DNA from: Gemmatimonadales bacterium
Lineage (GTDB): Bacteria; Gemmatimonadota; Gemmatimonadetes; Gemmatimonadales; GWC2-71-9
Reading direction: 5' to 3'
DNA length: 64,000 nt
Assembly: GCA_035491815.1 (NCBI GenBank)
Contig: DATJKA010000047.1
Location: forward strand, 168,576 to 232,575
Under the pieces are notes generated by a model. That model ran no database searches. It worked only from the letters and a program-made list of their open reading frames with translations, and was not told where the DNA came from. Both the position numbers and the translations under genes were made by a program. The first letter of the stretch is position 1. Each line of letters begins with the position of its first letter. Positions 4,184-49,662 of this stretch are shown piece by piece.

Positions 4184-6022
<1,839 letters not shown>

Positions 6023-45283: not shown

Positions 45284-45574
45284 TTACAACAGCGCGCGCA
45301 GCGCGTTGTCGATTTCGGAATTCGGCACGGCGCGCGCACCCAACTCCCGGGCCGCTCGCAGTCCGGCCGCATCCACATGCGCGCCGAACGCGAGCACCGG
45401 GACGCCACGCGCTACGAGCGCTCCAACGCGCTCGAGCGCGTTGGCGGTGCCGAGCTCGAGCACCGCGACATCGAGCGGCTCGTCGCGAACCGGCTCGGCC
45501 CCTGCCTGTCGAATGATTTCCTGCAGCTTGCCGCGGAAGAACAAGTCACGGCATTCGAGCAAGACGCGCTTCAC
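45284..45574 (-). CDS. hypothetical 96-aa protein
   Basis: The GTG start overlaps the glyQS stop (GTGA). Alternating beta/alpha pattern; no family recognised. Confidence 0.45.
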
Positions 45575-46935
45575 CCCGCCAGCTTCTGCGTGAGGTACTC
45601 GACGAGCTTGCCGGCCGCCACGCGGTCCTGCTTCAGCGTATCGCGATCGCGGACCGTGACGGTCTGGTCTTGCGTGGACTGCCCGTCGATGGTGACCCCG
45701 AACGGCGTGCCCGCCTCGTCCTGGCGGCGGTAGCGGCGACCGATCGAGCCACCGTCGTCGTAAAAGACGTTGAAGTGGCGGCGCAGGTCGTCGTGAATCT
45801 TGTGCGCAAGCTCCGGCATCCCGTCCTTGTTGACGAGCGGGAACACGGCGGCTTTGAGCGGGGCGAGTGAGGGTTTGAGTTTCAGGACGACCCGCACGTC
45901 CCCCCCTTCCCCCGCCTCTTCGCCCTTCACCTCTTCCTCTTTATAGGCATCACACAGCACAACCAGCGTCGTGCGGTCGGCGCCGGCCGACGTCTCGACG
46001 ACATAGGGGATGAATCGCTCGTTCGTCTTCGTATCGAGGTACTCGAGCTTCTTGCCGGCGTGCTTCTGATGGTTCGACAGGTCGAAGTCGGTCCGGTTGT
46101 GAATTCCCTCGAACTCGTTCCAACCGAACGGGAACTCGTACTGAATGTCGTAGGCATCCTTGGCGTAGTGCGCGAGCTCGTCCTTGCCGTGCTGATGCCA
46201 GCGCAGCTTCTCCTCGCGAATCCCGAGCCCCTTGACCCAGTTCATGCGCTCGGTGCGCCAGAACTCGAACCACTCGTTCTCCGTGCCCGGCTTCACGAAG
46301 AACTGCATTTCCATCTGCTCGAACTCGCGCGTGCGGAAGATGAAGTTGCCGGGCGTGATCTCGTTGCGGAACGCCTTGCCGACCTGCGCGATGCCGAACG
46401 GAATTTTCTGCCGCGAGGACTGCAGCACGTTCAAGTAGTTGACGTAAATCCCCTGCGCCGTCTCGGGCCGCATGTAGATCACGGCCGCCTGCTCCTCGAC
46501 CGGTCCCATGAACGTCTTGAACATGAGGTTGAATTGCCGCGGCGCGGTCAGCGTCCCTTTTGTGCCGCACACAGGACACTGCGCATCCGGCTGGCCCGGC
46601 GTGCCCTTGATCTTCGGATCGTCGGCGCGGAAGCGATTCTTGCATTGCTTGCAGTCGACGAGCGGATCGGTGAAGCCGGAGACGTGGCCCGACGCCTCCC
46701 AAACTTTCGGATGCATCAGGATGGCGGCATCCAAGCCCTCGATGTCGTGCCGCTCGTGCACCATCGAGCGCCACCAGCGCTCCTTGATGTTCTTCTTGAG
46801 CTCGACGCCGAGCGGGCCGTAGTCCCACACGGAGCCGAGCCCGCCATAGATCTCAGAGGATTGGAACACGAAGCCGCGCCGCTTGGCCAGCGACACGAGC
46901 TTGTCCATCGTCTTGTCTGTCGTTACCGAGGGCAT
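45571..46935 (-). CDS. glyQS: glycine--tRNA ligase (dimeric class II type)
   Basis: The start is taken at M35 of the track ORF ([32 protein letters not shown]...), 13 nt after the glxK stop. Class II motifs are present throughout. Confidence 0.9.
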
Positions 46936-46948
46936 AAGGAGCCGGAAG

Positions 46949-48031
46949 TTATCGAGCCAACGCCTCCCGCGCGACCTGCTCGGCCATCCGGGAGAGCGCG
47001 GCAGCGTCCAGAAGTCGGTCTCCGGCACCATCGCCACTCACGGAATGGACGCCGACGAGCCCGTCCACACGCGCGGCCACCACCGCGACCTTCTTCTTTG
47101 CAGCTTGCGCCCGTCGCACCACTTCGCCGGGGGCCTTTCCAACGAGCGACGTCCCGTCGAACACGCCTTCCCCCGTGATGACGAGGTCGGCCTTGGCTAG
47201 GGCGGCATCGAATCCCGCGCGCCCCAGCACCCAATCCGCCCCGCCCGTCAGCTCGGCCTTCGCAAAGAATACCAGCCCGGCGCCGAGTCCCCCGGCGGCG
47301 CCTCCCCGCGGCATTGTCGCGAGCTCGGGCCTGCCGGCCGCCGCCCACAGCTCAGCCAGTTTCGCGAGTCCCGCACCGAGCTGCGGAATCTCGTCCGGCC
47401 GCGCGCCCTTCTGCGGCCCAAAGATCGGCGCCGCGCCTTCCGGGCCGAGCAGCGGTGTGGCGACGTCCGCCAACGCGACGACGCGGGCGGCGAGACCCCA
47501 GCCCGGACCAAACGACGCGAGATCGGTGAGCGAGCCGCCACCCTCGGGCAGGGGTGCTCCGGCCGCGTTCTCGAACGTCCAGCCGAGGCCGCGCGCCGCA
47601 CCCGTCCCGCCATCGACCGTAGCGGTGCCGCCAAGGCCGACGACGATCGTCTTGGCGCCGCGATCGGCTGCGGTCCAGATGAGCTCGCCGACGCCGCGGG
47701 TGGTGGTGCGCATCGGATCGCGGTCCTCAGGCTCGACGAGCGCCAGGCCGCACGCGGAGGCGCTTTCGATGATCGCCGTTTCGCCGTCGATCCATCCGAT
47801 TTCTCCCGAGACCGAATCGCCGATCGGCCCGGTGACCTGGACGCGCTCGCGCAGCGCGCCGGCCGGCAGTACGACGTCGAGCAGGCCGTTGCCGCCGTCG
47901 GCGACCGGGCACTCGAGCACCACCGCGCCCGCGACGGCACGGCGCACGCCGGCGGCGATCGCTTCGGTCACCTGCCGGGGACCGAGCGTTCCTTTGAATG
48001 CGGCTGGGGCAACGAGGATGACGGGAGGCAT
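46949..48031 (-). CDS. glxK: glycerate kinase
   Basis: The start is taken at [16 protein letters not shown].. (48031). ...PVADGGNG..., ...[15 protein letters not shown]..., ...FGPQKGA... and ...[11 protein letters not shown]... are present. Confidence 0.85.
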
Positions 48032-48044
48032 GGGATAAAATATC

Positions 48045-48078
48045 GGAAACGAGAAACCCCTTGGGTTTCCCCAAGGGG
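48045..48078 (-). terminator. intrinsic-terminator-like hairpin (probable riboswitch expression platform)
   Basis: Minus-strand RNA reads CCCCUUGGG-GAAA-CCCAAGGGG followed by UUUCUCGUUUCC. It ends 13 nt before the glxK ATG. Confidence 0.6.
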
Positions 48079-48162
48079 TGATCGCCTGCCGCACACCGTG
48101 CGCCCTAGAACCCGATGTGAGCGAAGCGAACTCCTTCTCGCAAATCGGGCGGCGCAGCGTCG

Positions 48163-48243
48163 CTCTGGCAGCCGGGCTATCTCGTTGCCGAGACCCCTTG
48201 GCTTTGCGCCCCGCCGTCGCCGGCGGTTTGCCCTGTTGCAGAG
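48163..48243 (-). promoter_or_regulatory. candidate c-di-GMP-I (GEMM-I) riboswitch aptamer
   Basis: Minus strand reads CUCUGCAAC AGGGCAAACC GCCG[GCGA]CGGC GGGGCGCAAAGCC AAGGGGUCUCG[GCAA]CGAGAU AGCCCGGCUGCC AGAG. This matches the GEMM-I core as recalled from Vc2 (..CAGGGCAAACC-hairpin/GNRA-GGGACGCAAAGCC-hairpin-AGCGGGGUUACC..). Confidence 0.7.
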
Positions 48244-48378
48244 ATTCTGTATGAAGGAATCAGCAAGAAGAGTGCCCATCGTGTATCTCGTGTCACAACA
48301 ATCGCTCTCACTATGACCTAGGGAAATTCCTAAGCCAGTTTCTGCAACGACCGTCGCATTCTGCTAGCAGGGCAACCC

Positions 48379-49662
48379 CTACACTTCGATGATTTGATCG
48401 CGTCGCGTGCCCACGCTGACGTAGCGGACGGGCGCGCCCGCGAGATCCTGCAACCGATCGACATAGGCACGAGCCTCCGGCGGAAGATCCGCGAGTCTCC
48501 GGACGTCCGAAAGCCTTTTCTTCCAACCGGGGACCGTCTCATAGATCGGCTCCACACGTCCGATCGACTCGACATCGGCCGGCATGCTATCGACGACCTC
48601 ACCATCCAGGCGATAACCCACGCCGACCGGAATCTCGGCGAACGTGTCCAGCACGTCGAGCTTGGTGACGGCGAGTCCGGTGAGCCCGTTGACGCGCACG
48701 GCGTATCGCACGACGACGGCATCGAACCAGCCGCAGCGGCGCGGCCGTCCGGTTGTCGCGCCAAACTCGCCGCCGAGCTCGCGGATGCGCTCCGCGACTG
48801 CCGGCTCCGCTTCCGTCGGCAGCGGGCCATTCCCAACGCGGGTCGTGTACGCCTTCACGACGCCGATCACGGCGTCGATTGCGGTCGGCCCGATGCCGAC
48901 GCCCACCGCCGCGCCCCCCGCCGTCGTGTTGGACGACGTGACGTATGGATACGTCCCGTGATCGACGTCGAGCAAAGCGCCCTGAGCGCCCTCCAGCAGC
49001 ACCGATTCCCCGCGCTGCAGCGCTTCCCAGACCACGCGGCCCGCATCGACCGCGAGCGGTAGCAGTCGAGGGGCGAGGCGTTCGAGCAGCTGCACATGGG
49101 CTTCCGCACTTGCGCGCTCGCCGCTCCCGGCACCCAGCATGCCAAGGATCTGGTTCGCGGACTCGACGCGCGCACGCACGAGCTCCTGCGCTCGGGCAAG
49201 ATTGCGCAAATCGCCGACGCGAATACCACGGCGGCCGTACTTGTCCTCGTACGTGGGACCGATGCCCCGCCCCGTCGTGCCGATCTTCTCCCGCTTCTCG
49301 CGCGCGCGATCGAGCAGCTTGTGATACGGCAGCGTCAGATGCGCCCGGTCGGAGATATGGAGCTTCTGATCGGTCCGAATGCCGCGCTGCTCGAGCGCGT
49401 CGAGCTCGGCGAACAGCTGCTCGGGATCGAGCACGACGCCGTTGCCTACGATGCAGACGGCGCCCTGGAGGATGCCGGAGGGAATCTGATGGAGGACGAA
49501 CTCGCCGGCGCCCGTGTCGACGGTATGGCCGGCGTTGGCCCCGCCCTGGTAGCGCACCACCAGGTCGGCGCGTTCGGCCAGTACGTCGACGATTTTGCCT
49601 TTGCCCTCATCGCCCCATTGGGCGCCGACGACCACGACGCACTGCGTTTTCGGTCCGAACAC
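48379..49662 (-). CDS. purA: adenylosuccinate synthase
   Basis: 427 aa with VVVGAQWGDEGKGK and ...GTTGRGIGP.Y.DK.... The GTG start is preceded by GGGGGGA. Confidence 0.92.
   Translation of the reverse strand: MFGPKTQCVVVVGAQWGDEGKGKIVDVLAERADLVVRYQGGANAGHTVDTGAGEFVLHQIPSGILQGAVCIVGNGVVLDPEQLFAELDALEQRGIRTDQKLHISDRAHLTLPYHKLLDRAREKREKIGTTGRGIGPTYEDKYGRRGIRVGDLRNLARAQELVRARVESANQILGMLGAGSGERASAEAHVQLLERLAPRLLPLAVDAGRVVWEALQRGESVLLEGAQGALLDVDHGTYPYVTSSNTTAGGAAVGVGIGPTAIDAVIGVVKAYTTRVGNGPLPTEAEPAVAERIRELGGEFGATTGRPRRCGWFDAVVVRYAVRVNGLTGLAVTKLDVLDTFAEIPVGVGYRLDGEVVDSMPADVESIGRVEPIYETVPGWKKRLSDVRRLADLPPEARAYVDRLQDLAGAPVRYVSVGTRRDQIIEV

Follow-up and report, generated by a model that had tools for sequence, protein, structure and literature searches.

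The spacer between purA (adenylosuccinate synthase, 48379-49662) and glxK (glycerate kinase, 46949-48031) measures 347 nucleotides (nt; 48032-48378) in the 64-kb stretch of Gemmatimonadales DNA analyzed here (hereafter the window), and on its minus strand it carries an aptamer for cyclic diguanosine monophosphate (c-di-GMP). The question raised by this locus is to what the aptamer belongs. Riboswitches for c-di-GMP are usually read as leaders of the next gene, and an earlier note on this DNA proposed just such a leader, with a terminator as its expression platform, for glxK, the glycine-tRNA ligase gene glyQS and a coupled open reading frame (ORF) of 96 amino acids (aa). With a leader there, a central-carbon kinase and an aminoacyl-tRNA synthetase would come under second-messenger control, and the comparison of related loci speaks against this. 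Because the block that contains the aptamer is conserved independent of the orientation of glxK and also occurs without the aptamer, the aptamer very likely belongs to an autonomous small-RNA unit and not to a leader of glxK. That unit is read here, with moderate confidence, as a small-RNA gene of about 205 nt (from about 48252 to 48046, minus strand) in which the 5′ c-di-GMP aptamer is an optional module. Gemmatimonadales are an abundant and poorly studied group of soil bacteria, and the unit could connect c-di-GMP signalling to post-transcriptional control in them.

The c-di-GMP-I aptamer

The whole window was scanned with cmscan against all 4227 Rfam families, and a single match was returned: RF01051, c-di-GMP-I, at 48242-48164 (minus strand), with 60.0 bits against a gathering score of 35, an E-value of 3.1e-9 and alignment to model positions 1-87 of 87. 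The earlier note had recognized a GEMM-I aptamer in the letters from 48243 to 48163, which matched exactly when the sequence was re-read, and had said that a score below the gathering cutoff would speak against it; the score obtained bears the identification out. The aptamer (48163-48243, minus strand) is closed by a P1 stem, CUCUG/CAGAG. Its core box AGGGCAAACC, the first hairpin with its GCGA cap, the box CGCAAAGCC and AGCCCGGCUGCC align to the RF01051 consensus, the G that discriminates c-di-GMP-type aptamers being retained, as had been suspected, and CGCAAAGCC carries an A at the intercalating position. The ligand-contacting bases are canonical (G in AGGGCAAACC, A in CGCAAAGCC and C in AGCC; these are G20, A47 and C92 in Vc2 numbering) and, like the core boxes, are invariant in 46 orthologues. 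In the alignment of orthologues, changes on both sides were seen at four of the five P1 pairs, and pairing is complete (100%) in the first hairpin, CCGCCG-GCGA-CGGCGG in the window, whose cap is GCGA or GUGA. For the second hairpin the figure is 87%, even with some slips of the alignment in its variable tip. It is short and has no tetraloop receptor, RF01051 model positions 51-54 and 67-69, which include that receptor, being deleted. Taken together these features make 48243-48163 almost certainly a canonical c-di-GMP-I aptamer, a new member of a well-known family.

Membership in the variant family RF03167 (c-di-GMP-I-GGC) was considered and rejected. Under permissive thresholds RF03167 was the best clan member for the window, at 56.7 bits and below its cut-off of 59, and in 15 of 16 orthologous loci (L001-L016) it scored above its cut-off and higher than RF01051. 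Its consensus differs from that of RF01051 in the core, its CGC[G]AAgCc having a G in place of the A of RF01051; judging by the two consensus lines, ′GGC′ presumably names the three ligand-contacting bases. Since the window and every orthologue keep A at this variant-defining position (CGCAAAGC), the aptamers are assigned as canonical, and the RF03167 model is apparently drawn to their canonical binding sites by a compact shape. A passing RF03167 score cannot, then, be trusted to tell true variants from compact canonical aptamers.

A conserved unit in two orientations and three architectures

A glycerate kinase protein query identified 50 loci in Gemmatimonadales genome bins (63-92% identity), and for 46 of these a profile built from the first aptamer matches located the aptamer beside glxK. 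In 16 of the 46 species genomes, aptamer and glxK are on opposite strands. At one such locus (L008) the entire block of upstream conserved sequence, aptamer, 84-nt segment and terminator hairpin is inverted and aimed at purA, and all 46 modules align as one conserved unit whichever way they point. A metagenome scan with the hairpin motif ATYGGGTTCTAGGGCGCAC gave at least 120 loci, every one of which, where the flanks were informative, showed the purA / glxK-glyQS neighbourhood, again in both orientations. Among the matches listed, a unit of promoter, aptamer, linker, hairpin and terminator sits between purA and glxK in about 165 related loci; in about 100 loci, likewise among the matches listed, the unit is opposite to glxK, with its terminator toward the purA end and no same-strand gene downstream. 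At many of these loci the terminator borders directly on the stop codon of purA, as do enhancer-like boxes at the upstream end of the unit on the glxK start.

Three architectures were found. The short-linker form, to which the window belongs, accounts for 108 loci among the matches listed. Another 24 of the matches listed have a linker about 35 nt longer, with an extra terminator between aptamer and hairpin, and 27 have no aptamer, the putative σ54-type promoter box standing 18-26 nt before the hairpin segment. The c-di-GMP Rfam match was present in all five long-linker loci tested and absent in all ten aptamer-less loci tested. On a neighbour-joining tree of glxK, aptamer-less loci form at least two groups among the long-linker loci, and one further locus (L181) falls among the short-linker loci. 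Because they nest inside aptamer-bearing clades, the aptamer appears to have been lost repeatedly, at least three times, while hairpin, promoter and terminator were kept. These comparisons suggest that promoter, body and terminator form the core gene, in which a control module, the aptamer, may or may not stand between the first two.

On the same tree the co-directional loci, the window included, fall into one large group, and a group of opposite orientation (L008, L025, L029 and L047) is nested inside it, which points to at least one inversion of the unit, and probably two. A site-specific invertible element was considered and rejected: no flanking inverted repeats were found in the window, and orientation mostly tracks the glxK tree, with one nested exception. 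This suggests fixed evolutionary rearrangements, not an active invertible switch.

Several loci are irregular. One metagenome contig (L173) has two slightly differing inverted copies of the unit about 700 nt apart (at 134 on the plus and 869 on the minus strand), with a glxK start after each, and probably arose when two strains were assembled into a chimera or a fold-back. At two others (L145, about 5300-5400, minus strand, and L190) the promoter is deleted, and L145 also lacks the 5′ half of the aptamer; both keep the aptamer 3′ half, linker, hairpin and terminator. Decay of the unit or an error of assembly would account for them. Many relatives have the unit bordered, in some cases on each side, by tandem repeats of 7-8 nt, of which TTGGCGTC/TCGGCGTC is the type and CTTGGCGTCTTGGCGCCTTGGCGTCTG an example. 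They lie between terminator and glxK in L004, L012, L040, L104 and L160 and between purA and the unit in L006, L012 and L050; the window has none. Such repeats might serve as a hotspot for recombination or as an array of binding sites.

Small-RNA body and terminator

The roughly 50 nt ahead of the terminator are near-invariant and exceed the variable regions of the aptamer in conservation. This proposed body of the small RNA (48082-48130, minus strand) forms a 15-base-pair (bp) imperfect hairpin, UUCGCUUCGCUCACAUCG / CGGUGUGCGGCAGGCGA, around a 14-nt loop, GGUUCUAGGGCGCA (48112-48099), that is invariant in 37 distinct sequences. In those sequences 98.6% of alignment cells are paired and 6 of the 15 pairs have changed on both sides. 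None of 500 shuffles matched this support, and shifted-pairing controls paired 25-51%. RNAalifold, run on the full unit, misfolded the aptamer yet pointed to the body hairpin. The 3′ domain has no match to any Rfam family up to E = 1. A tRNA-like or transfer-messenger RNA element was considered, since the loop GGGUUCUAGGG recalls a tRNA T-arm, but ARAGORN gave none. As the presumed effector surface of the RNA, the invariant loop would serve as a seed for base pairing or would bind a protein.

The body is followed by an intrinsic terminator, ACCCCUUGGG-GAAA-CCCAAGGGGU and then UUCUCGUUUC (48046-48079, minus strand). The GAAA-capped hairpin that the earlier note had placed 84 nt past the aptamer was recovered by an independent pattern scan as a 10-bp stem (48079-48056) with a GAAA loop and the T-tract TTCTCGTTTC as tail. 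Compensatory changes occur at 4 of its 10 pairs, so that, on the covariation check suggested earlier, P1 and the terminator stem both covary in orthologues. The terminator is present in every architecture, the aptamer-less one included.

Putative promoter region

The part of the spacer upstream of the aptamer (48244-48378) is low in GC, as had been observed, at 48.9% against 66.9% for the window. A pattern scan found no σ70-like promoter. A σ54-type promoter core, GGCAC-N5-TTGC, lies at 48263-48276 (minus strand), and its -24 GG / -12 GC pattern and spacing are those of σ54 promoters. Among the matches listed, the box occurs in 159 of the 162 loci with enough upstream sequence, flanked by variable sequence on either side, and it keeps a fixed distance from the first RNA structure, 25-30 nt before AGGGC. 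The promoter is called because the position of the box is conserved, not because of the single match in the window. Transcription is predicted to start near 48252, and the small-RNA promoter would be σ54-dependent. This σ factor is near-universal in free-living bacteria with a lipopolysaccharide-containing outer membrane (PMC3162934).

Two boxes resembling upstream activator sites, GCAGAATGC and TGCAGAAAC, stand about 20 nt apart and 60-90 nt upstream of the promoter (48338-48364, minus strand). Their consensus, GCA..tGC.....TGCAgaa..C (GCA-N3-TGC-like), is conserved in both orientation classes, and in aptamer-less relatives they are clean palindromes, GCATTATGC occurring twice; they are candidate sites for an enhancer-binding protein. 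In aptamer-less and long-linker lineages the GCATTATGC palindromes abut the glxK start codon, and for this reason an activator of the small RNA may in these lineages influence glxK as well.

Directly upstream of the promoter lies a TGT-N10-ACA box, TGTGACACGAGATACA (48282-48297, minus strand), with the consensus TTG.tGTgaCag..gTTACa in loci of the window's architecture; it is not conserved in aptamer-less or internal-terminator loci. Another box upstream of the promoter, CCCTAGGTC (48315-48323, minus strand), is conserved only in the clade co-directional with glxK. Its CCCUAG part is complementary to CUAGGG of the hairpin loop, possibly by coincidence.

Independence from glxK and alternative explanations

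The ATG assigned to glxK (48031-48029) is correct, as the protein sequence at the start is conserved, and of 126 distinct glxK upstream sequences (45 nt upstream, L001-L198) 122 have no Shine-Dalgarno motif. In 49 of 57 distinct co-directional loci, compared with about 9% of shuffles, the start codon is preceded by a TANNNT hexamer whose end is 5-9 nt away; the window has TATTTT there (48042-48037), so that -10-like box and ATG together span 48029-48042 (minus strand). Similar boxes (CTATGTTGG, CATAAT) stand at the equivalent place before glxK in opposite-orientation loci. Since a -10-like box lies near the start and no Shine-Dalgarno motif precedes it, the glxK mRNA is probably leaderless or nearly so, with its own promoter outside the small-RNA unit. 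The absence of a Shine-Dalgarno sequence reported by the earlier note is therefore real, but the -10-like box 5-9 nt upstream explains it better than termination control does.

This bears on the first alternative, in which c-di-GMP would decide between a stop at the 48079-48046 terminator and continuation into glxK, glyQS and the 96-aa ORF. The arrangement that suggests it is genuine: the unit is co-directional with glxK in the clade of the window (57 distinct loci), and many of these loci have the terminator ending 10-15 nt before the glxK start. A read-through leader of such length would, however, translate poorly without a Shine-Dalgarno motif, and glxK retains the -10-like box by its start codon. 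The 84-nt segment is more conserved than the variable parts of the aptamer and forms its own covarying hairpin. An antiterminator pairing of CCAAGGGGU with ACCCCUUGG was examined as a way for the aptamer to reach the terminator; all nine of its pairs are perfect in the window, yet many orthologues have mismatches in it, and the terminator exists in loci that have no aptamer. The pair of hairpin and terminator occurs without an aptamer and, in about 100 loci among the matches listed, points away from glxK. A riboswitch acting on its own transcript would be expected to have a conserved same-strand gene downstream and a platform overlapping the aptamer; the opposite loci and the terminator shared with aptamer-less loci show neither. 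The terminator as expression platform, and glxK, glyQS and the 96-aa ORF as regulon, had both been part of the original proposal and are not upheld, and a glxK termination switch now seems improbable.

A second alternative takes the RNA to be a sponge or store for c-di-GMP, like the merRNA of Bdellovibrio bacteriovorus, with the 3′ hairpin and terminator merely stabilizing it. A stand-alone aptamer RNA with no same-strand gene downstream, as about 100 loci among the matches listed have it, is what merRNA also offers. Storage does not account for the pattern of loss, in which the hairpin with its invariant 14-nt loop is always retained and the aptamer has gone at least three times; internal-terminator relatives, moreover, would yield the aptamer alone in one state, which fits regulation better than storage. 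We consider storage unlikely.

Thirdly, transcription of the unit might itself regulate the neighbours, by antisense or convergent interference with purA or, where the unit is co-directional, by occlusion of the glxK promoter. The abutment of the terminator on the purA stop and of the enhancer-like boxes on the glxK start in many opposite-orientation loci would suit this, and no riboswitch family occurs in antisense arrangements more often than that for c-di-GMP (PMC9943018). The neighbour affected would vary by clade, yet the RNA sequence is invariant; a strong, conserved terminator speaks against read-through as the purpose, and some loci have another gene between purA and the unit. There is little to commend interference as the main function. 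A leader peptide encoded in the 84-nt segment, with translation coupled to the terminator, is barely credible: an AAGGAG motif is present at 48137-48132, but no start codon follows at a usable distance, the motif varies in relatives (AAGUUG, AAAGAC, GAGGAA), and the 50 nt downstream are invariant at all positions with no variation peculiar to third codon positions, so the small ORF behind AAGGAG was rejected.

Proposed switch mechanism

An autonomous small RNA of this kind would act in trans on other molecules in the cell, and its aptamer could act as a switch. In the mechanism proposed, c-di-GMP turns the small RNA off, and the two aptamer-bearing architectures would achieve this differently. 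For the folding calculations, the ligand-locked state was imitated by withholding the aptamer bases from pairing. The folds obtained for long linkers are GC-rich hairpins (-17 to -25 kcal/mol) with U-tracts behind them, predicted to be an intrinsic terminator between aptamer and body hairpin. The mean pairing probability of this internal terminator, calculated for 21 sequences, had a median of 0.06 with aptamer bases free and 0.85 with them withheld. A ligand-locked aptamer would thus free a C-rich strand, and the internal terminator would form before the body is transcribed.

The short-linker form of the window has no internal terminator, and a masking element is proposed in its place. The linker boxes GCGCC-G-CCCGAU (48144-48155, minus strand) are complementary to the flanks of the hairpin loop, AUCGGG and GGCGC, and loci of the window's architecture keep GCGCC-N0-5-CCCGA, in which the spacer that parts the two boxes varies. 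The two linker-loop helices have 97% and 89% of alignment cells paired. The minimum-energy fold of the window RNA includes this pairing, and folding of the stretch past P1 alone yields it in 39 of 45 orthologues. Subtracting the ensemble energy of the hairpin fold from that of the masked fold gave a median of -0.7 kcal/mol in short-linker forms with the aptamer free and -4.15 kcal/mol with it withheld, the corresponding values for the window being -2.2 and -9.1, and 13 sequences switch from the masked to the hairpin fold once aptamer bases are free. By this calculation short-linker forms would be nearly bistable with the aptamer free. Binding of c-di-GMP would then let the linker pair with both loop flanks, so that the hairpin is opened or masked. 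The hairpin is taken as the active state because aptamer-less relatives can form only the hairpin.

Silencing by masking in the window form is offered tentatively. The fuller proposal, of a trans-acting small RNA that senses c-di-GMP directly and whose σ54-driven hairpin is allosterically masked by a linker freed by the ligand-bound aptamer, is somewhat more doubtful again. Were it true, a riboswitch would here control the conformation of a finished RNA and not transcription termination or translation initiation, and the terminator-gated and aptamer-less sister forms would make up a natural series of riboswitch gain and loss on a small RNA.

Several points weigh against an autonomous small RNA switched in this way. 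The small-RNA transcript and its ends are predictions. The promoter core is the sole exact match in the window and is not significant by itself, 0.73 matches being expected by chance, and neither rpoN nor an activator gene was seen among the window genes scanned, no genome-wide search having been made. No target was found for the loop: in the roughly 1.5 Mb searched, most of it sequence of this very locus, complementary 9-10-mers were at chance level. Invariance on the loop side leaves the pairing of linker and loop without covariation. The switch was calculated from folds at equilibrium in which the ligand-bound state is crudely imitated, and for the window the masked fold comes out ahead whether the aptamer is free or withheld. 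Finally, the terminator in the clade of the window ends 13 nt from the glxK ATG, so that read-through or occlusion of the glxK promoter is possible there.

Neighbouring genes

The neighbours named by the earlier note, purA, glxK, glyQS and the coupled 96-aa ORF, were all confirmed; only the mechanically assigned glyQS start at 47037 did not stand. The Pfam match of glxK begins at residue 5. The glyQS product is a dimeric glycine-tRNA ligase. The mechanical ORF overlaps glxK, and since the family profile begins to align only at its residue 44, the true start is probably the ATG at 46935 or at 46908 (within 46908-46951, minus strand), 13-40 nt past the glxK stop. The GTG of the 96-aa ORF (45284-45574, minus strand) overlaps the glyQS TGA (GTGA). 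Its product has no Pfam or NCBIfam match. It is kept directly after glyQS in 90 related loci (43-75% identity), and on that ground is a real gene of no known family. Aptamer-less and long-linker lineages have an additional gene, of 333 aa, separating purA from the small RNA (for example L086, 2811-3812, minus strand); from its N-terminal motif the product looks like an FAD/NAD(P)-binding oxidoreductase.

Comparison with known systems

A second-messenger aptamer within a stand-alone small RNA is a rare arrangement. No earlier description of this small RNA was found in the literature searched, and it is absent from Rfam 15; the composite of a σ54-type small-RNA gene, an optional aptamer and two coupling devices appears to be undescribed. 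Its three natural architectures, without aptamer, with an internal terminator and with a masking linker, offer a comparative system for the coupling of a sensor to a small RNA.

The aptamer shares with the c-di-GMP-I family (RF01051, Vibrio cholerae Vc2) the AGGGCAAACC and CGCAAAGCC boxes, a first hairpin capped by a GNRA loop, a second hairpin and P1. It differs in its short second hairpin, which lacks the tetraloop-receptor positions, and in being followed by a conserved small-RNA body, mostly with no coding gene downstream on the same strand. With the RF03167 variant it has a compact architecture in common, but the distinguishing G of that variant in CGCGAAgCc is A here.

Among the closest precedents in arrangement is the merRNA of Bdellovibrio bacteriovorus, also a stand-alone non-coding RNA with a c-di-GMP-I aptamer and no conserved downstream ORF (PMC3627812). 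It is 445 nt long, restricted to Bdellovibrio, and was proposed to be a sponge owing to its massive expression (PMC3627812). Unlike merRNA, the unit described here has a covarying effector hairpin that also exists without the aptamer, a σ54-type promoter and internal-terminator variants. It was the only c-di-GMP precedent found in the literature searched, and its function is itself a proposal.

The σ54 small RNAs Qrr and GlmY resemble the present unit in having a -24/-12 promoter, upstream activator sites and an intrinsic terminator; they are not known to carry a ligand-binding aptamer, and the σ54 dependence of the present unit is a predicted one. Also among the closest precedents are EutX of Enterococcus and Rli55 of Listeria, in which a B12 riboswitch reportedly gates a non-coding RNA. 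Like these, the long-linker relatives have a 5′ aptamer and the makings of ligand-dependent premature termination before a functional 3′ part, and 24 of them among the matches listed match the layout in form. Ligand, phylum and promoter type differ from those of EutX and Rli55, and the short-linker form of the window, which has no internal terminator, would need a mechanism that remodels the finished RNA.

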